From a virus (taxonomy: Duplodnaviria > Heunggongvirae > Uroviricota > Caudoviricetes): a DNA stretch of 6,592 bases. Position numbers and translations under genes: made by a program. Of this stretch, positions 1 to 6,592 are shown in pieces (position 1 is the stretch's first letter; each line of letters starts with the position of its first letter). The stretch covers positions 1 to 6,592 of IMG/VR virus record IMGVR_UViG_2547132273_000014. One strand, 5' to 3'. The notes under the pieces were generated by a model. It searched no databases and was not told where the DNA came from. It saw only the letters and a program-made list of their open reading frames with translations.

Positions 1-156
1 TTCGGTATCGATATGAACACCGACCACACGCTGGAAGAAGTGGGTAAACAGTTCGACGTTACCCGTGAACGTATCCGTCAGATCGAAGCGAAGGCGCTGC
101 GTAAACTGCGTCACCCGAGCCGTTCTGAAGTACTGCGTAGCTTCCTGGACGATTAA
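1..156 (+). CDS. rpoD: RNA polymerase sigma-70 factor, C-terminal end (5'-partial, truncated by window start)
   Basis: Frame 1 translates to [51 protein letters not shown], which I recognise as the region 4 C-terminus of E. coli sigma-70. TAA stop at 154-156, followed by hairpins and a T-run. Confidence 0.93.
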
Positions 157-209
157 TCGGTAGGCCGGATCAGGCGTTACACCACATCCGGCACTTTTCC
201 CTTTGCACA

Positions 210-236
210 AACGCCACCTTTTCGGTGGCGTTTTTT
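210..236. terminator. Rho-independent terminator shared by convergent rpoD and mug
   Basis: GC-rich stem AACGCCACC (210-218) / GGTGGCGTT (224-232) with 5-nt loop, then T6 (231-236) on the plus strand; the complementary A/T run gives a weaker U-tract on the minus strand just after the mug stop (235-237). A second hairpin (GCCGGAT 164-170 / ATCCGGC 186-192) lies upstream. Confidence 0.7.
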
Positions 237-741
237 ATCGCCCACGCACTACCAGCGCCTGGTCCAGTTCCCGATACGCCTCAACCAGTTTCTCCAGTGA
301 AACGCGACTTAAACCGCTGGGATTTGGCAGTACCCAAATCTGCGTCGAACCAATAGTGAGCGTTTGCTTCCCCCACTGTGCACCGCGTTGGCTGAATCCT
401 TGCTCAAACGCCTGTTTGCCCAGAATTGCCAACGCTTGTGGTTGGTAATCTTCAATTTTTTCAATCAGCTTACGCCCGCCTGCGTGCAGCTCCTGCTTTG
501 AAACTTCATTGGCTTGCACTGTTGGACGGTCTACAAGTTTGGTGACACCACAACGATAATCCAGCAGATGCTGTGCCTCCTGCGGCTTCAACTGACGGTC
601 GGTAAACCCAGCCTGATATATCACCTTCCAGAAGCGATTTGCCGGATGAGCAAAGGGAAAACCAGTTCCGGCGGATGAAAGACCAGGATTGATACCGCAA
701 AACACAACCCGTAACCCTGGAGCCAAAATATCCTCAACCAT
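235..741 (-). CDS. mug: G/U mismatch-specific DNA glycosylase (Mug)
   Basis: 168-aa [43 protein letters not shown]... matches my recollection of E. coli Mug in length and sequence; it sits convergent to rpoD, as in the E. coli chromosome. Confidence 0.9.
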
Positions 742-827
742 ATTTACTCCTTTCTAACATCACCAGGAAAAGTATAACGGATTGAAAATACATTGTTTAT
801 AAAAACAGCAGGCGAGCGGTAATGGCT

Positions 828-855
828 GGATTGCGACACGGAGTTACTTTATAAT
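828..855 (+). promoter_or_regulatory. Candidate sigma-70 promoter for the tRNA gene (consensus -10 TATAAT, weak -35)
   Basis: Perfect TATAAT at 850-855, about 10 nt before the tRNA 5' end at 866. The best -35 candidate is TGGATT (828-833, 16-bp spacer); a better hexamer TTGCGA (832-837) has only a 12-bp spacer. The -35 assignment is uncertain. Confidence 0.4.
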
Positions 856-865
856 CCGCTACCAT

Positions 866-941
866 GGCCCCTTAGCTCAGTGGTTAGAGCAGGCGACTCA
901 TAATCGCTTGGTCGTTGGTTCAAACCCAACAGGGGCCACCA
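866..941 (+). tRNA. ileX: tRNA with CAU anticodon; by genomic position (downstream of rpoD-mug) the minor isoleucine tRNA (lysidine-modified)
   Basis: 76-nt cloverleaf: acceptor GGCCCCT/AGGGGCC, D-stem GCTC/GAGC, anticodon stem GGCGA/TCGCT with loop CTCATAA (anticodon CAT), T-stem GTTGG/CCAAC, discriminator A and encoded CCA (939-941). Isoacceptor identity (Ile2 versus Met) is inferred from context, not from the sequence alone. Confidence 0.85.
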
Positions 942-949
942 TATCTATC

Positions 950-986
950 AAGGGGTTACGTTAACAGCGTGACCCCTTCGTTTTTT
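950..986 (+). terminator. Rho-independent terminator following the tRNA
   Basis: Stem 950-960 pairs with 968-978 (AAGGGGTTACG / CGTGACCCCTT, one G-U pair), 7-nt loop, then CG + T6 at 981-986. Confidence 0.55.
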
Positions 987-987
987 C

Positions 988-1007
988 TAGGATACCTATA
1001 GGATACC
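988..1007. repeat. Tandem direct repeat TAGGATACC-TA-TAGGATACC (11-bp period)
   Basis: Exact 9-mer at 988-996 and 999-1007, immediately after the tRNA terminator. Candidate recombinase or arm-type binding site at the island boundary; function not established. Confidence 0.45.
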
Positions 1008-1266
1008 GTGACAGAGTATAAGCAGGTATAAAAACAACAAGTTACGCAACATCATACCTGTCATGAAACTTTAACTATCCGACATGATAGCTGGTCGATG
1101 ATCACGGATAATCCGTTATGTGGATCCCCATATCGGCATCAGGCCCACCAGCGTGAAGCGTTTTTCATTTTTCGCGGGTATAAAAAATCGATGGGGCTGG
1201 CAGTCCGGAAGACGTCAGGGTACAGAGATTTGACCCGCCCCTCCCTGTGCATGGGCACAATAAGTA

Positions 1267-1292
1267 ACCGAAGGCGGAATTCCGCCCTCGGT
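1267..1292. promoter_or_regulatory. 26-bp near-perfect palindrome (core GGCGGAATTCCGCC)
   Basis: ACCGAAGGCGGAATTCCGCCCTCGGT; 14-bp perfect core at 1273-1286, arms extend to 13 bp with one mismatched pair (1272/1287). No adjacent U-tract on either strand, so it is not an intrinsic terminator. Confidence 0.4.
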
Positions 1293-1326
1293 ACTCACAT
1301 ATGAGAAACGATATTTCTTCCTCTGA

Positions 1327-1397
1327 TACCCAAAATATGGGTATCACAAGTAACCCCCAAAATCTGGGTGTTGCTCTTACTACCCAAACTACGGGTA
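1327..1397. promoter_or_regulatory. Array of three 17-bp palindromic operator-like sites (YACCC-N7-GGGTR) at an exact 27-bp period
   Basis: TACCCAAAATATGGGTA (1327-1343), CCCCCAAAATCTGGGTG (1354-1370), TACCCAAACTACGGGTA (1381-1397). The centre-to-centre spacing is 27 bp twice and the spacers are A/T-rich. Confidence 0.5.
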
Positions 1398-1417
1398 GTT
1401 TCCGTAATTTCATGGTC

Positions 1418-1464
1418 GAGTTGCAGATCTGCAACTCACCCACCAGCCAACGCAATTTTGCGTT
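1418..1464. promoter_or_regulatory. 20-bp perfect palindrome GAGTTGCAGATCTGCAACTC (1418-1437) plus 7-2-7 inverted repeat AACGCAA-TT-TTGCGTT (1449-1464)
   Basis: Both are exact in the sequence and lie 20-65 bp downstream of the stop of the 126-aa minus-strand ORF. Neither is followed by a U-tract. Confidence 0.45.
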
Positions 1465-1482
1465 ATCGGGAATATCAGCAAG

Positions 1483-1863
1483 TTACCGCCGCAGCCGTTC
1501 CGGCTTCTTCCACTGGTAAGTATTTTTCGCGCTCTCCCTCCGTTGTTGAGAACGGCGACGGTATGCCAGCAACTCAAGGACTCTGGTTCGTATGTTGCAC
1601 ATATCCACGCCGTTAAGCTCAATACCATCACGGCGCATCACCTCAGCAACAACACGCGCGTAATTTTCGGCTATCACGCTGTCCGGCTGCGTGGCCTCCT
1701 GTTCGCCAGCCTGCTGGCTGATTCCGGTAATACTGCGGATTATCCCGAGCGCTTCGGTCTCGGTCATGGTCATGGTCATGGCCTCCATAGTGATGGCGGG
1801 TCCTCCTTGTGGGGTGCCCTGCCACGGGGCGGGAGCATCGCGGAAAAAGGCTAGTTTTTGCAT
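1483..1863 (-). CDS. Hypothetical protein downstream of the small terminase gene (start uncertain, likely internal at about 1773-1788)
   Basis: 126-aa ORF in the same orientation as the packaging genes, with a basic C-terminus. The first ATG (1863) lacks an RBS. A GGAGG at 1783-1787 precedes three tandem in-frame ATGs formed by (ATGACC)x3 at 1762-1779; the ATG at 1771-1773 has the best spacing (8 nt). I recognise no protein family. Confidence 0.4.
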   Translation of the reverse strand: MQKLAFFRDAPAPWQGTPQGGPAITMEAMTMTMTETEALGIIRSITGISQQAGEQEATQPDSVIAENYARVVAEVMRRDGIELNGVDMCNIRTRVLELLAYRRRSQQRRESAKNTYQWKKPERLRR

Positions 1864-2024
1864 TTTTATTCGTCATCACCACCAATGCAATATATTGATA
1901 TGACTTGATGTTTTATTTTTCGGTGTCGATTTCGATTGTTTTTTGTTCATCACTGACGCATAACGCCCACCAGCGCAACGCTGAAAGCCAGTCAGTAAAC
2001 TGGCTTCGGTCATTGTGCACTACG

Positions 2025-2567
2025 TTACTTGTCTTTATCCGGCTGAAACTTATCAGGCACATTTCCGGTAGTTTCCATCAGATAATCGGACAGCATTCGC
2101 GGGATGTTTTCATCAAGTTTTGTGCATGCGTTACAGGCTCTGACAACTTCTTTTTTCAGGCCATCCAGCATGACGGGGGTCATCTGTGGGAAGCTCCTTT
2201 GCATAGTAAGCGGGAGGCTGTCCATGATTGATGAAATCTGACTCGCCAGTTTTGAAAGCGCGTACATGCAAAACTCTGTATCAATCACGTCACCGCGATC
2301 GCGCTCGTTTTTAAGTTCCTGCGCCTCCGCCTGTGCTGTCAGTAATCTGATCCTGACTCGTAAGAGTTCATCATCATCAATCTCGCCTTTGTCGTTTGTA
2401 AGCTGGCTAATTGCATTGTTAACCCTATTGTCTATCACGCTGGCAACATCATAAAACGCCTCACGGCCTTTACGTTCAACGGGAGTCACTCCCCACTTGT
2501 CGAATGCTGTAGCACTTACCCGGCAGCTTTGCGCCATGGTTTTTTTGTTCATCAGGTGCGATTTCAT
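2025..2567 (-). CDS. Phage lambda Nu1-like terminase small subunit (TerS)
   Basis: The translation aligns along its whole length with lambda gpNu1 as I recall it, for example RLLTAQAEAQELKNERDRGDVIDTEFCMYALSKLASQISSIMDSLPLTMQRSFPQ against lambda RLTRAQADAQELKNARDSAEVVETAFCTFVLSRIAGEIASILDGLPLSVQRRFPE, and C-terminal DENIPRMLSDYLMETTG against DELIPGLLSEYIEQSG. The N-terminal segment MNKKTMAQSCRVSATAFDKWGV is more divergent. It lies immediately downstream of a cos site, as in lambda. The ORF-track start at 2570 is TTG; ATG starts are at 2567 and 2552. Confidence 0.85.
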   Translation of the reverse strand: MKSHLMNKKTMAQSCRVSATAFDKWGVTPVERKGREAFYDVASVIDNRVNNAISQLTNDKGEIDDDELLRVRIRLLTAQAEAQELKNERDRGDVIDTEFCMYALSKLASQISSIMDSLPLTMQRSFPQMTPVMLDGLKKEVVRACNACTKLDENIPRMLSDYLMETTGNVPDKFQPDKDK

Positions 2568-2574
2568 CAATATC

Positions 2575-2745
2575 CCAACTTGGTCAAGGTTTCAGGTTGG
2601 TGTGTTGGTGTTATCTTTCCCTTTTTATTCATGGAGATAGAGCAAACAACAAAACCACCACCACCACCCTGAAAAAGCTCATAAATAGCGAAAAACCGCG
2701 AGGTCGCCGCCCCGTAGCCTACCGGATCGCCGGAAAGGACCCGCC
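2575..2745 (-). other. Lambda-type cos site: cosQ-like and cosN (12-nt cohesive end GGGCGGCGACCT, 2701-2712) with a divergent cosB-like region toward the TerS start
   Basis: The minus strand reads GGGTCCTTTCCGGCGATCCGGTAGGCTACG-GGGCGGCGACCT-CGCGGTTTTTCGCTATTTATGA, which is almost base-for-base the lambda right-end/cos/left-end sequence as I recall it (lambda: ...GGGTCCTTTCCGGTGATCCGACAGGTTACG GGGCGGCGACCT CGCGGGTTTTCGCTATTTATGA). The 130 bp between cosN and the TerS start do not resemble lambda cosB. Confidence 0.8.
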
Positions 2746-2768
2746 AGCCAGAACGGGCCCTAATTTCA

Positions 2769-3152
2769 TCAACCAATCAACTTATAGCGACCATCCCGTG
2801 CATTGCGACGTACACGCTCAATCTTGAGGCATAGCGCCGCATCTGGCTTTTTTGGGACAGGTACGCGGCAATATTCAGAAGCTCGAGGAATATTGTTTAT
2901 CCAGTCGATCACTTCACTTAAATACCAGGCCTTACGCCCTTCCGTAACCTGTACGCGCTCGGGGAACTCTCCGCGAGCCTCAAGGTTTAGCAATGTGCGA
3001 CGGCTAAGGGTAGTAAGTTCCATCACCTGATTCATATCAACAAGGCGTTCACTTAAACGCATTTTGTCAGCAATAGCCTTTAATTCCTCTACTGCTGGAT
3101 CCGGATACATCATTTCGGCAATTGGCTTAAGGTCATTGTAATGATTCTGCAT
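2769..3152 (-). CDS. 127-aa DNA-binding protein with an AlpA/Vis/excisionase-type winged HTH (MerR superfamily), flanked by N- and C-terminal extensions
   Basis: Central motif MELTTLSRRTLLNLEARGEFPERVQVTEGRKAWYLSEVIDWI fits the AlpA/Vis-family pattern (L-x-x-LSR-x-T-L...G-x-FP-x-x-V...GR-x-A-W...E-V-x-x-WI). Strong RBS AGGGGG 5 nt upstream of the ATG at 3150-3152. The stop at 2769-2771 is about 25 bp before cosQ. Confidence 0.65.
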   Translation of the reverse strand: MQNHYNDLKPIAEMMYPDPAVEELKAIADKMRLSERLVDMNQVMELTTLSRRTLLNLEARGEFPERVQVTEGRKAWYLSEVIDWINNIPRASEYCRVPVPKKPDAALCLKIERVRRNARDGRYKLIG

Positions 3153-3163
3153 TGTATCCCCCT

Positions 3164-3505
3164 TTACACACGAGCCAGCGGCTGAACAGAAATACCTGAG
3201 CCAACAAACGCGGCAACCTTTGCCGACAGTTCTTTTACAGACTCAGGCCAGTTCAGAGCATCAACATTTAAAACACCTGTCTTATAAACCTGTGCCTGTG
3301 TTTTTTTCGCTGTGTCGATTTGTACAGCGGAAACATAAACCGCTTTGCCTGCGCTCGTTCCATCCCATACCACTAGCGCACCAGTTGCATCTTCCTGCAT
3401 CAGTGGCGTAAACGCAGGTATTACCCCTTTATTGGCTGAAAATATCCCCAGCGTAGTAACCAGTGCTTCAGTGCCAGACATGAGTTCAGTGTAATGAGTA
3501 GCCAT
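3164..3505 (-). CDS. Lambda gpD-like head decoration protein
   Basis: 113 aa, against lambda gpD at about 110 aa. Shared motifs with lambda D as I recall it: [27 protein letters not shown] against [42 protein letters not shown] against [25 protein letters not shown] against TAFAGTAISIV. RBS AAGGGGGAG overlaps the upstream stop. Confidence 0.82.
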   Translation of the reverse strand: [113 protein letters not shown]

Positions 3506-3514
3506 TGCTCCCCC

Positions 3515-4561
3515 TTAGCCAATGCGAACGGTAACAAAACGATTGATGCGGGCCGGTATTGGCTGTGGTGCTGAATGTGTCTGCACATATTCAATAGCCG
3601 GATCACCAGGCACAATATAGTTTTTCGGTGCAAGTTCGGCTTTAGTCAGCCCCATCCGAATTAGCTCCGGATCCTGAATACCGCCATAAGCGACAATCCC
3701 CTGAAGAGCCGTATTGCCAAGCACCATCAAATCAGGATCAAGGAAATATTTTTCAGTTCCGTCCTCGTCGGTATAACGCCCGCTGTAAACAACAATCGCA
3801 ACATCGCCCATATACCCTTTAAAACTCACCGAATCACCAAGGTCTTTAAGGGCCGTTTCCAGTTCGGAATTAGAACCTCGACGGGTATCCAGAGCCTCTT
3901 TTACAGCTCTGAATGAGCGGTATTTTTTCCATACATTGCCGCCCATAATAATGATATTAGTGACTCCCTCACTAAATTCTGCGTAGCTCTCAATATCATC
4001 ATTTGGATCAAAAGATCCTTTATCCTTACCTGACCACTCAGCACCGCCAGACTGAGTGATGATATTTTGTGGTTTAATATTCCAGTCCAGTTCATAACGT
4101 TCAATACCATCGCCCTCAATGATATTTTTCCCCGTTGTGATTGCCTGAACAGCAAGCCATTCAATACGTGCACGTATAGCTTTAGCCTGATTTACAATCG
4201 CCTGTTTAACTTTAATATTACGCGCCCCAAAAGCATTGTATTGTTCAGGTGATACACCAGCAGGGCGCACAGCTAACTTATTTGGATCAATGCTGCTTTT
4301 CGGTTTCATATAGCCAGGGCGAATTGTTTTTGATTCGTATCCCTCATCTCGTGAAACTTTACTGCCCACCATAGGAGAGCAAAACGCCGCGATCGGGATA
4401 TTTGGATCGTCGATCGTATCAAGAATAATGTCTCTCGATTCAAACATTACCGAGCGAGTGAAAAACAAACTGGTAAACAACGCATTTAATTTTTTTTGCA
4501 CATCTTCAGCATTAGCCACCTGCACAAGCTGTGTAGGCGAATATAAATCAACCATACTCAT
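3515..4561 (-). CDS. Lambda gpE-like major capsid protein
   Basis: From the internal start MSMVDLYSPTQL... (ATG at 4559-4561; alternative ATG at 4553-4555) the product is 348 aa, against lambda gpE at 341 aa, and aligns throughout with lambda E as I recall it: ITQSGGAEWSGKDKGSFDPNDDIESYA against ITQSGGTEWSKRDKSTYDPTDDIEAYA; LDTRRGSNSELETALKDLGDSVSFKGYMGDVAIVVYSG against LDTRRGSNSELETAVKDLGKAVSYKGMYGDVAIVVYSG; MVLGNT...YGGIQD against MVLGNT...YGCIQD. The ORF-track N-terminal 27 aa (MHLVACIR...) are probably not translated. Confidence 0.88.
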   Translation of the reverse strand: MSMVDLYSPTQLVQVANAEDVQKKLNALFTSLFFTRSVMFESRDIILDTIDDPNIPIAAFCSPMVGSKVSRDEGYESKTIRPGYMKPKSSIDPNKLAVRPAGVSPEQYNAFGARNIKVKQAIVNQAKAIRARIEWLAVQAITTGKNIIEGDGIERYELDWNIKPQNIITQSGGAEWSGKDKGSFDPNDDIESYAEFSEGVTNIIIMGGNVWKKYRSFRAVKEALDTRRGSNSELETALKDLGDSVSFKGYMGDVAIVVYSGRYTDEDGTEKYFLDPDLMVLGNTALQGIVAYGGIQDPELIRMGLTKAELAPKNYIVPGDPAIEYVQTHSAPQPIPARINRFVTVRIG

Positions 4562-4726
4562 CCTCTTTACATTCATTACAAATAATTGTGAATATATTCT
4601 ATTACCGATGTCTGCTATGCGAATACATGCAACCAAGTGCAATGTTGTATAAAATCTGCCGTGACAACTTCAGTGCTGATAATTCGTGTTAATGTATTTA
4701 CTTCCTTTGGTCGGGATTTATGTAGC

Positions 4727-4761
4727 ATGCCGGAAAATCTATTTTCTTCCGGCATTTTTTT
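4727..4761 (+). terminator. Plus-strand-oriented intrinsic-terminator-like hairpin in the SSB/capsid intergenic region
   Basis: 9-bp stem ATGCCGGAA (4727-4735) / TTCCGGCAT (4747-4755), 11-nt loop, then T6 (4756-4761). On the minus strand the run is A-rich before the stem, so it is not a terminator for the flanking minus-strand genes. Confidence 0.4.
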
Positions 4762-4772
4762 ATTTGCAGAAT

Positions 4773-5195
4773 TTAAAACGGTATATTATCGCCGTACGGA
4801 TCATCATTCCCCGACTGTTGTTTTGCCCTGTTCAGTGCGTCAGTAGCCTGGCCCTGTTGACCTTTTTTGCCGCCCGGTCGCGCCGTTCTGGCACTGATTA
4901 CACTGTCTGCGATAACCTGCCAGCCCTGCCGCGTTTCGCCGTTCTGGCCTGTCCACTGGCTTACCTGCATGTTACCCGCCACGCTCACCAGTTCGCCTTT
5001 GTGGTGTTTTGCCAGTGCGTCGGCCTGTCTGCCAAACGCCAGGACGGATAACCACATCGTCGCCGTTCCGTCATCTGCCTGGCTGCACGGAAGTGGGACC
5101 GCCATACTCGCCATCGTCATTTGTGTACCCTTGCTGGTGGTCTTTAACTGCGGGTCAGCCACCAGCCGCCCGTAAGCCGCTATCTGTGCTGTCAT
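4773..5195 (-). CDS. Single-stranded DNA-binding protein (SSB)-like, with acidic C-terminal ...DNIPF tail
   Basis: 140 aa. The OB-fold region resembles E. coli SSB as I recall it: IAAYGRLVADPQLKTT against VILVGNLGQDPEVRYM; MWLSVLAFGRQADALAKHHKGELVSVAGNMQVSQWTGQNGETRQ against [45 protein letters not shown]. A Gly/Gln-rich linker leads to a terminal DDPYGDNIPF, compared with SSB DDDIPF. The start ATG overlaps the stop of the upstream ORF (ATGA). Confidence 0.72.
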   Translation of the reverse strand: MTAQIAAYGRLVADPQLKTTSKGTQMTMASMAVPLPCSQADDGTATMWLSVLAFGRQADALAKHHKGELVSVAGNMQVSQWTGQNGETRQGWQVIADSVISARTARPGGKKGQQGQATDALNRAKQQSGNDDPYGDNIPF

Positions 5196-5437
5196 GCTGT
5201 CTGCTCTCCGGTTTTAACGTTGATGGTTGTCACCTGTTCCGCTTCGGCAATCTCCCGTTCTGTCAGCGTGGCAAAGTTTGCAGCTGCCGTTGTCATGAAT
5301 GAGCTAATCAGTTCGGGATGTGCTTTCGCATATCCTTCCCCGGCGTTGCGGTCGATGATTTTTATCGACACCCTTAACCAGTGTTCCGTCAAATCAAGGG
5401 CGTGCGATTGTGATTTTTTTGTGTGCTTCGCTGTCAT
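5192..5437 (-). CDS. Hypothetical 81-aa protein, translationally coupled to the SSB-like gene
   Basis: ORF MTAKHTKKSQSHALDLTEHWLRVSIKIID... lies between the iteron array and the SSB-like gene in the same orientation, with a 4-bp ATGA stop/start overlap. I recognise no family and the RBS is weak. Confidence 0.45.
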   Translation of the reverse strand: MTAKHTKKSQSHALDLTEHWLRVSIKIIDRNAGEGYAKAHPELISSFMTTAAANFATLTEREIAEAEQVTTINVKTGEQTA

Positions 5438-5482
5438 AGGCTTTATCTCACAGCAGTAAATTAAAATTTTTGCGTTTTAACC

Positions 5483-5712
5483 CTTCACCTGTTCACCTTT
5501 TGATATTTTATCTTTTAATTCATAATGTTAAGGGGTGAACAGTTTCACAAAAACTATTCACCAACTGTTCACCACTGTTCACCCTTGAAGCTCAATAAAC
5601 AATCAAAAAGGTGAACAGTGAATAGTTTGGTGAACAGTTCATAAATAACTGTTCACCCTATAACATACTGATACAAAAGATATTTATGACAGGGTGAACA
5701 GTGGTGAACAGT
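5483..5712. repeat. Iteron array: at least 9 perfect copies of TGTTCACC / GGTGAACA (10-bp unit ACTGTTCACC) in both orientations; P4 ori/crr-like primase-binding repeats
   Basis: Forward TGTTCACC at 5490, 5566, 5576 and 5650. Reverse GGTGAACA at 5534, 5610, 5629, 5693 and 5703. Degenerate copies at 5483-5489, 5555-5562 and 5618-5625. Interspersed A/T-rich tracts (5461-5480, 5498-5530). The array sits directly after the stop of the primase/helicase gene. Confidence 0.8.
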
Positions 5713-5724
5713 TATTCCATAAGT

Positions 5725-6592
5725 TTAATTTTTGCTATCGTCATTAGTGACCGATACACATGATGGCATCCAGTCTTCTGATTCCTCCGTCAGTGTCACG
5801 TTTGAACGCAAACCGTGCTTCGTTTTCCGTTTCATATACTCCCTGCCATATTCCGCCATTGCCCCCGGCATATCTTTACCGAAGCGCGTCAGTGTTACAG
5901 GTTTACCAAACCCATGTGCCCTCATATAAGCCAGATAGGCATGATAGAGATACCTGCGTGGGCTGAATGGCACAATTTCAGCATTACCCACTAACAGGCC
6001 ATCACACATTACCGACGCCATGAGATAGCCGCAGAAGTCCACCAGCGAATCCCCCTCTCGCTTTATCGCCAGTGCTTCTTCAGATTTCTGCTGCTCATAT
6101 AACAGGCGTCTGGCTTCGTCCTGGTCAGCAAACCGTGTAAGCAGATGGCGAATCACTACCGCCAACTCACCTTCTATTTTTTCCGCCAGCATTGGATCGC
6201 GTTCGTTCTCCGGTACAACTTCCGAAAAATTGAATATCACCCGACGACGTGAGATCCCCCCGCTGCGGTCACTGAATGACATGGCGTTATTGTTAACCGC
6301 CAGCACTACTGCCGGAATACGCGTTGAGTAGGGGGCTTTGTGTTTCGGGTCAATTGCCACCTTGTCACCGCCTGTAATGGCCTTAATTCCTGCCCCATCA
6401 CCAGCGTAGCGGGTCATATCCGGCATGATAATCAGCGAAAAGCCAACCACTAACGCGCGTTCCCTTGCATCTTCCAGCGCCTTCATGCTTGCCGATACTG
6501 TGTTGGCCTTACCCGCCAGCATGGTGCAAATCTCCGCCATCACGCTTTTACCACTTCCCCCTGGACCTGTTACCTCAATGAATAACTGCCAG
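5725..6592 (-). CDS. P4-alpha-like primase/helicase, C-terminal helicase portion (5'-partial; continues beyond window end)
   Basis: The open frame runs to the window edge. Its translation contains the Walker A motif in ...WQLFIEVTGPGGSGKSVMAEICTMLAG... and downstream helicase-like motifs (LIIMPDMTRYAGD). It is immediately followed by the TGTTCACC iterons that are the recognition repeats of P4 alpha. The ORF-track start at 6543 is an internal GTG. Confidence 0.8.
   Translation of the reverse strand, partial: WQLFIEVTGPGGSGKSVMAEICTMLAGKANTVSASMKALEDARERALVVGFSLIIMPDMTRYAGDGAGIKAITGGDKVAIDPKHKAPYSTRIPAVVLAVNNNAMSFSDRSGGISRRRVIFNFSEVVPENERDPMLAEKIEGELAVVIRHLLTRFADQDEARRLLYEQQKSEEALAIKREGDSLVDFCGYLMASVMCDGLLVGNAEIVPFSPRRYLYHAYLAYMRAHGFGKPVTLTRFGKDMPGAMAEYGREYMKRKTKHGLRSNVTLTEESEDWMPSCVSVTNDDSKN

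Follow-up and report, generated by a model that had tools for sequence, protein, structure and literature searches.

Lambda gpE- and gpD-family capsid and decoration genes in a tRNA-integrated phage-inducible chromosomal island of Escherichia coli

We analysed a stretch of 6,592 nucleotides from Escherichia coli (IMG/VR virus record IMGVR_UViG_2547132273_000014, positions 1 to 6,592; hereafter the window) in which a gene for a major capsid protein resembling gpE of phage lambda (E) is followed by one for a head decoration protein resembling gpD (D). Both genes belong to a 10.5-kb Gram-negative phage-inducible chromosomal island (PICI), whose genes within the window all lie on the minus strand (Table 1). 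Transcription runs from E to D, the inverse of the lambda order, as the first-pass annotation of this DNA had proposed; the two reading frames are 9 nt apart, and the gap holds a ribosome-binding site (GGGGGAG). That annotation had also placed a gene for a single-stranded DNA-binding protein (SSB) upstream of E, and a helix-turn-helix (HTH) gene and cos downstream of D. These neighbours were recovered, the HTH gene being of AlpA type and the cos site containing an exact lambda cosN. The AlpA-type gene begins 11 nt past D and has a ribosome-binding site of its own (GGGGGA).

The gpE-like reading frame matches the Pfam profile Phage_cap_E at 141.4 bits (cut-off 22.9), with residues 14-345 covering positions 4-327 of 329, and the protein matches PDB 3BQW (E=1e-120, residues 10-347), lambda gpE in 7VI9 (E=3e-76, residues 7-347) and phrog_29, labelled 'major head protein' (E=5e-89). 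Its full-length identity to lambda gpE is 42%, and it keeps both the length and all alignable segments of that protein. The gpD-like reading frame scores 57.2 bits (cut-off 29.1) against the Pfam profile HDPD, and its product matches PDB 1TD0 (E=2.8e-16; annotated only 'Head decoration protein'), 1C5E (E=1.8e-12) and phrog_49 (E=1e-26), with 40% identity to lambda gpD over 78 aa. The family assignments of the first-pass annotation were thus borne out by profile searches: judged by these matches, the two proteins are almost certainly full-length members of the families of lambda gpE, the HK97-fold shell protein, and gpD, the trimeric cement protein. The lambda head genes are of the same two protein families as the island pair, which has a lambda-type cosN and Nu1 beside it. 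They differ in sequence (40-42% identity to the island E and D) and in order (C/Nu3-D-E in lambda, E-D in the island), and lambda's W, B, C/Nu3, FI and FII are absent from the island.

The reading frame of E was correctly delimited in the first-pass annotation except for its start, placed at 4561, which adds two residues. The ATG at 4555 has a ribosome-binding site (AGAGGA) 5 nt upstream, is the start used by RefSeq, and corresponds to the M(P/T)(D/N)(L/I)Y at which E homologues of other genera begin; because these three lines agree, it is the likely start. On the opposite strand of 3164-4561 the longest plus-strand reading frame spans 63 aa, and no Rfam match was obtained. Upstream of E, a hairpin with a 9-bp stem lies just past the SSB stop (4727-4755) and a sigma-70-like site lies at 4623-4596; promoter-like sites in this region are no commoner than in shuffled sequence. 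E, D and the AlpA-type gene, as the third member, probably form an operon; E and D would open the packaging side of the island, which continues with the AlpA-type gene, cos and the Nu1-type small terminase gene. The AlpA-type gene lies 3' of D in loci L006-L009 and L017 of our comparison and in all 79 of the IMG/VR loci described below that reach that far, locus L035 stopping within D. The protein family it matches, phrog_2790, is labelled 'excisionase and transcriptional regulator'.

Table 1. Features of the 6,592-nt window, in order of position.
Feature	Position	Strand	Evidence or remark
rpoD, 3' end	window start		E. coli chromosome
mug	235-741	minus	E. coli chromosome
tRNA ileX (CAU anticodon) and island attachment repeat	866-960 (tRNA itself 866-941)	plus	
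Conserved hypothetical protein, 94 aa, last island gene before the attachment site	1483-1767	minus	phrog_1561 (function unassigned) E=2e-50; RefSeq CDS
Nu1-type small terminase subunit, full-length, 180 aa	2025-2567	minus	Pfam Phage_Nu1 E=1e-22; phrog_57 E=6e-52
cos site	2679-2712	minus	exact lambda cosN 12-mer at 2701-2712
AlpA-type HTH protein, 127 aa	2769-3152	minus	PF05930 E=1.4e-8; phrog_2790 E=1.8e-48
gpD-family head decoration (cement) protein, 113 aa	3164-3505	minus	PF02924 E=2.3e-15
gpE-family major capsid protein, 346 aa	3515-4555	minus	PF03864 E=4.5e-41
Region upstream of E: hairpin and sigma-70-like site	4596-4755	minus	consensus matches only
SSB, upstream neighbour of E	4773-5195	minus	PF00436 E=4.3e-16
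81-aa protein, between the iteron gap and SSB in transcription order		minus	
Probable replication origin, iteron array	5488-5717	both orientations	AT-rich gap
Primase/helicase, C-terminal part (D5_N, DUF5906, Pox_D5)	5725-6592	minus	gene runs past the window end

The complete island was read in NZ_CP069500.1, which is 99.3% identical to the window. There the element lies between mug and nfeF, with ileX at one end and an integrase gene next to nfeF at the other. The 3' half of ileX recurs as a 65-nt direct repeat that delimits the island, its two copies 10,546 nt apart. Every gene except one is annotated on a single strand. Its other genes encode DUF4222, YlcI/YnfO, an Icd-like protein, two small proteins, a 62-aa HTH_17 protein near int, a 228-aa protein and a tyrosine integrase (PF13356, PF00589). 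The element has the hallmarks of a Gram-negative PICI: its size, a tyrosine integrase at one end, attachment repeats, an HTH regulator near int, its own primase and iteron origin, and cos with a terS-like gene. No portal, protease, scaffold, large terminase, tail or lysis gene is present in the annotation of the complete island, and the islands of the related free-standing loci compared contained no matches to lambda A, W, B, C, FI or FII. The first-pass annotation had described the shell genes as unaccompanied by portal, scaffold and protease, a description that such genes just outside the window would have overturned; none was found adjacent, so the description stands. An Icd-like gene and a D5-type primase are also common to P4-like elements and this island; Psu, Delta and Sid of P4-like satellites are not annotated in it (no profile search aimed at them was made).

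The gene pair is already known, and this island is another Gram-negative PICI of the kind of EcCICFT073, the model element of that group. The capsid gene c1499 and the decoration gene c1500 of EcCICFT073 were described and knocked out in 2018 (Fillol-Salom et al., PMC6092414), and the RefSeq capsid product of that island and the PDB chain 3BQW are both 351 aa long, so that a crystal structure exists for a homologue 55% identical to the window's E. EcCICFT073 and the window share 55% identity in E and 54% in D, the E-to-D order and the synteny. Common to the two islands are int, HTH, YlcI/YnfO, Icd-like, DUF4222, a D5-type primase, ori, SSB, capsid, decoration, one more gene, a small-terminase-like gene and cos; the helpers of EcCICFT073 and related classical Gram-negative PICIs are lambda-type cos phages. 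The islands differ in their integration site (beside roxA in EcCICFT073, at ileX here), in the gene after D (a 137-aa Nu3-end-like protein against an AlpA-type regulator), in the packaging protein (a 144-aa putative RppA against a 180-aa Nu1 homologue) and in the PerC gene, which is absent upstream of E in this island.

EcCICFT073 has been mobilised experimentally and uses lambda and phi80 heads with phage-sized DNA (PMC6092414, PMC6739421); helper induction and high-frequency transfer were observed for it and for its relatives (PMC6092414). Deletion of c1499 or c1500 neither relieved interference with lambda nor restored lambda plaquing, and did not reduce transfer by resident prophages (PMC6092414). 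When the genes following ori in EcCICFT073 were cloned singly, c1503 (RppA) alone inhibited lambda (Fillol-Salom et al. 2019, PMC6739421). Of 29 reference Gram-negative PICIs, 21 carry a capsid gene, which transfer does not require (PMC10111431), and SatelliteFinder lists 'capsid morphogenesis' as one of five PICI core components. The arrangement is therefore less unusual than the first-pass annotation had presented it. In the literature searched, we found no later paper giving the capsid and decoration genes of PICIs a function.

Packaging and replication functions lie on either side of the pair. The exact cosN copy (GGGCGGCGACCT) is flanked by bases that match the left end of lambda at 33 of the first 34 aligned positions, and the sequence further downstream, at the cosB position, does not match lambda. 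The small terminase is 37% identical to lambda Nu1 over residues 7-167, the C-terminal region included; it matched no PDB chain at E of 0.05 or below and showed no significant similarity to the 144-aa protein of EcCICFT073 that we took as RppA by length and position. We considered whether it could be an Rpp protein of the 144-153 aa type (RppA, RppB or RppC) and rejected this, the protein being a full-length Nu1 homologue unlike the putative RppA. Because a full-length Nu1 homologue adjoins a lambda-matching cosN that has no lambda-like cosB, the sequence suggests that the island replaces the small subunit of the helper outright, rather than through an Rpp-TerS heterodimer. The primase gene is followed directly on its 3' side by a region of low GC content (0.39 in 5251-5750), where about ten GGTGAACAGT iterons occur, some in each orientation. 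This array is probably the replication origin of the island, and its position agrees with the ori location reported for PICIs (PMC6092414).

To place E and D among their homologues, we compared them with phage and satellite copies. No capsid at least 60% identical to the island E was found in 50,697 phage records, the best match being lambda at 41.8%. In a large protein collection the homologues were bimodal, with identities of 52-98% and then of 44% or less. Satellite copies share at least 52% identity with one another and no more than 44% with any phage copy. Every genomic context examined in the upper group was a satellite (from Escherichia, Superficieibacter, Kluyvera, Cedecea, Kosakonia, Serratia, Lelliottia and Edwardsiella), whereas every one in the lower group was a phage head module with the order Nu1-A-W-B-C-D-E-FI. 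Gene order divides the two in the same way: E precedes D in all satellites, and D precedes E in every phage and helper prophage, about 60 of them from the IMG/VR loci, the lambdoid prophage neighbouring EcCICFT073 in CFT073 serving as a D-to-E control. A phage lineage with the E-to-D order was considered as donor and rejected, since all phage and helper contexts examined read C-D-E; one apparent fusion of E and D (P0076, 42% identity) turned out to be D followed by E in a phage head module. On these comparisons, we conclude that E and D belong to a satellite-only lineage, separate from the phage copies. The pair is carried by 395 of 5,426 complete E. coli genomes (coverage at least 80%). The satellite clade, the selection acting on it, the opposed gene orders and the near-identical copies embedded in helpers described below are what the present analysis adds by comparison.

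Both genes are under strong constraint. Across five genera, dN/dS was 0.03-0.06 for E and 0.07-0.11 for D, with synonymous sites saturated; lengths were constant and all reading frames intact across the genera compared, and both genes were intact in 79 of 80 IMG/VR copies, the remaining one being cut by a contig end. The low dN/dS and constant lengths indicate working genes, not remnants. Free-standing islands of Escherichia, Serratia, Lelliottia, Kluyvera and Superficieibacter keep both genes under this strong purifying selection.

The gene that follows D varies among relatives. In a free-standing PICI of Lelliottia sp. (L013:10001-12752), E and D are followed by a full S49 protease/scaffold gene, whose gpC-like product is 447 aa long and 50% identical to lambda C; this E-D-C module mirrors the lambda order C-D-E, and its genes all point the same way. 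For EcCICFT073, the 137-aa product of the gene after D (L004:27084-27497) aligns with the C-terminal end of head maturation proteases (phrog_53, E=1e-8) and, weakly, with residues 311-413 of the Lelliottia gpC-like protein, which form its Nu3 scaffold region (E=0.001). By these matches EcCICFT073 may encode a scaffold-like remnant, of which the papers on these islands consulted for this analysis make no mention. The corresponding gene in the window was considered as a scaffold remnant too and rejected, as it is of AlpA type and has no similarity to gpC. From its gene content, which runs from a full gpC in Lelliottia through the Nu3-like remnant of EcCICFT073 to the window, where the AlpA-type gene is unrelated, the family looks like a progressive reduction series in which E and D are always kept.

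Two further readings of the pair were weighed. The pair could be the decaying, functionless remnant of a captured phage head module, as the knockouts without phenotype and the stepwise loss of the neighbouring protease/scaffold gene would allow. However, dN/dS values of 0.03-0.11 at saturated synonymous sites, constant lengths and the intactness of nearly every IMG/VR copy effectively refute decay, and we give this explanation next to no credence. Alternatively, instead of being spare lambda parts, the pair could belong to an old, co-evolved shell system confined to satellites, always ordered E to D and in some members followed by a gpC- or Nu3-like gene, which would build satellite-specific or mosaic heads on helper portals. 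Such heads might possibly have a property outside the 2018 assays, for instance no need of a helper head factor such as FI, a changed stability, evasion of host defences that sense capsids, or the ability to exploit helpers with an unsuitable shell. We regard this as quite unlikely.

The regions that distinguish the satellite proteins from those of lambda are the N-terminal arm and a short C-terminal extension of D, and the N-terminal part and C-terminus of E. Residues 1-30 of D are identical at a fraction of 0.55 among satellites but of only 0.20-0.24 between clades, and the extension, VQPLA, is conserved and clade-specific. In E, residues 1-60, 121-150 and 301-346 are clade-specific, whereas residues 211-270 are shared between clades. 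The N-arm of the capsid protein and, in the HK97 fold, its E-loop are both located in the N-terminal part of E. As PMC5701804 summarises from Lander et al. 2008, the N-terminus of gpD in lambda joins the E-loop of one gpE subunit and the N-arm of an adjacent one in a sheet of four strands. Since clade-specificity is greatest in those parts that make up the D-E joint of lambda, it is a reasonable inference from sequence that the island D is tuned to the island E and that the two form a matched pair, which would explain why they always travel together.

Clade-specific surfaces, together with strong conservation of a pair that is dispensable for transfer, would also fit, if only indirectly, proteins acting outside the virion, as decoys, sensors or regulators that, for example, titrate a helper head factor such as the FI packaging chaperone or evade or trigger capsid-sensing host defences. 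Yet the EcCICFT073 homologues left lambda unaffected when expressed singly, constraint spans the full length of both proteins as for lattice-forming subunits, and no analysis that we ran indicated a second activity. We consider such a role very improbable.

Near-identical copies of the pair were then located in IMG/VR, where a scan was far more productive than one of genome contigs with narrow back-translated patterns (4 loci). Eighty IMG/VR loci (L019-L098) carry an E 97-100% identical to that of the window. In 49 of them the satellite is inserted in gene E of a helper (at about codon 80-82), co-oriented with the helper late operon, and in 13 it is inserted in the portal gene B (at about codon 273-279); three are free-standing with an integrase of the window's type, and 15 fell in no assigned context class. 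Insertion in gene E was likewise seen for satellites of Cedecea and Kosakonia with related E-D modules, and E-D is carried as well by an Edwardsiella satellite located in gene B. The two fixed insertion points were also noted in L008, L009 and L015. Among the copies embedded in E, the small terminase gene (TerS) is missing in 33 of 49 and an exact cosN in 46 of 49; those embedded in B have an exact cosN in 13 of 13 and the TerS gene in 12 of 13.

The right arm of helper-embedded PICIs such as 11capE (PMC10111431) is essentially the module of this island, comprising primase, the 81-aa protein, SSB, E, D and the AlpA-type gene, with or without TerS. By contrast, just 3 of the 80 loci have this island's integrase, for which the embedded copies examined gave no match, and the island itself stands free at a tRNA gene, so it is not one of the helper-embedded PICIs. 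By gene content, the right arm of the window is a helper-embedded PICI module joined to a tRNA-targeting integrase.

These copies raise the possibility that the pair serves mainly as a spare part, replacing a helper capsid gene that the satellite interrupts, and that the copy at ileX is a recently inherited passenger of little function. The 49 co-oriented copies inside helper E and the same module in the Cedecea and Kosakonia satellites fit this explanation, as do the silent knockouts in a free-standing island, and the authors of the helper-embedded PICI study raised the idea of a backup copy (PMC10111431). It accounts less well for the 13 copies and the Edwardsiella satellite in portal gene B, where helper D and E are intact, for the retention of D everywhere although helper D is never interrupted, and for the strong purifying selection on both genes in free-standing islands of five genera. 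We think it unlikely as the principal explanation.

The ends of the free-standing island yielded some further observations. ARAGORN reads the tRNA as Met (CAT), and RefSeq as tRNA-Ile (ileX); lysidine modification makes the CAU anticodon of ileX decode as Ile. The functional tRNA takes its 3' half from the island, and next to the integrase gene is the original 3' half that was displaced (85% identical). Just inside both island ends is a doubled motif, GGATACC-TATA-GGATACC, within a 45-nt repeat (78% identical; 981-1003 in the window, 12985-13029 and 23311-23355 in locus L001). These may be arm-type binding sites of the integrase, and they recall a 'doubled DNA motif' noted in helper-embedded PICIs. 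The stretch of about 540 bp that separates the tRNA from the final island gene (942-1482) contained no convincing reading frame and gave no Rfam match; the content identified there is the attachment repeat and the doubled motif. The gene of the 228-aa protein (L001:21160-21846, minus strand) overlaps the integrase gene, has no Pfam match and has island counterparts that are 27-29% identical; it may be a variable accessory gene, for instance an anti-phage gene.

The first-pass annotation had also suggested that heads built with island subunits might be of altered size or exclude helper DNA. In such a mechanism the island E, with D, would force small heads (e.g. T=4) that fit the island DNA and exclude the helper genome. 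There are precedents, quoted in PMC6092414 and PMC6893505: Ccm of SaPIbov5, a capsid homologue, makes small heads, and PmCI172 of Pasteurella encodes a capsid homologue and yields small capsids. By our own scaling, about 21 kb of DNA would fit in a lambda-type T=4 head, or some two island lengths. On the other hand, EcCICFT073 with lambda as helper packaged phage-sized DNA throughout (PMC6092414), interference survived the loss of either gene, only RppA blocked lambda when the genes were expressed singly, and the window proteins retain the full length and all alignable segments of lambda gpE. Like the island E, SaPIbov5 Ccm is a satellite homologue of the helper major capsid protein encoded without portal or large terminase; it causes small capsids and interference, whereas the EcCICFT073 homologues do neither (a comparison drawn from the literature). 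Because of the EcCICFT073 data, which come from a relative, we rate size redirection and helper exclusion as improbable.

Capsid-forming PICIs (cf-PICIs) of the EcCIEDL933 type offer another point of comparison. Like this island, they have their own major capsid protein and a similar left arm. They also encode portal, protease, head-tail connectors, HNH and both terminase subunits and make small capsids, whereas this island has only E, D and TerS and is not a cf-PICI. Published trees separate the capsid genes of PICIs and cf-PICIs almost perfectly.

We favour an account in which the pair, identified as above, contributes to heads of normal size. Upon induction of a lambda-type helper prophage, the island would replicate from its own iteron origin, and its small terminase would bring the helper large terminase to the island cos. 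The island E and D would be made alongside those of the helper and would enter lambda-sized (T=7) heads nucleated on the helper portal, protease and scaffold, with the island E alone or mixed with helper gpE in the shell and the island D cementing the island E. That heads form from island subunits on helper portal and scaffold, as the first-pass annotation had proposed, is plausible. The pair would be an accessory rather than a requirement, and its benefit probably conditional, namely securing or raising the supply of shell protein, which would matter most for the near-identical modules in satellites inside helper E or B. An assured shell supply appears to be the best-supported candidate for the benefit, chiefly for the embedded relatives that interrupt helper E. 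Taken as a whole, identity and mechanism together, we place this account slightly below an even chance; the mechanism part is more tentative, perhaps a possibility to be entertained rather than expected.

Several points weigh against it. That E and D enter particles is something we infer from sequence. The EcCICFT073 single-gene deletions had no measurable effect on transfer or interference, so that any contribution would be invisible under laboratory conditions. Lambda gpE needs the Nu3 scaffold for correct assembly, and the account assumes that a 42%-identical shell protein fits helper Nu3, gpC and gpB; the gpC-like gene or Nu3-like remnant of relatives could mean that the helper scaffold is not fully compatible, and this island has neither after D. 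Finally, shell supply fails to explain why satellites embedded in gene B keep the pair, because helper D and E are intact there.

Our results re-identify in another family member a feature that had been described before, and do not define a new kind of system. Why satellites keep their own shell and cement proteins is a genuine question, not one that is new with this window: few parts of enterobacterial PICIs are as conserved as the capsid and decoration genes, and the only knockouts gave no phenotype. If a satellite-only shell system exists, classical PICIs would stand between pure hijackers and cf-PICIs, as partial capsid-formers. Should E and D prove to be part of transducing particles, the virions by which virulence and resistance genes spread would owe some of their structure to classical PICIs, and the boundary between 'hijacker' and 'capsid-forming' satellites would blur.

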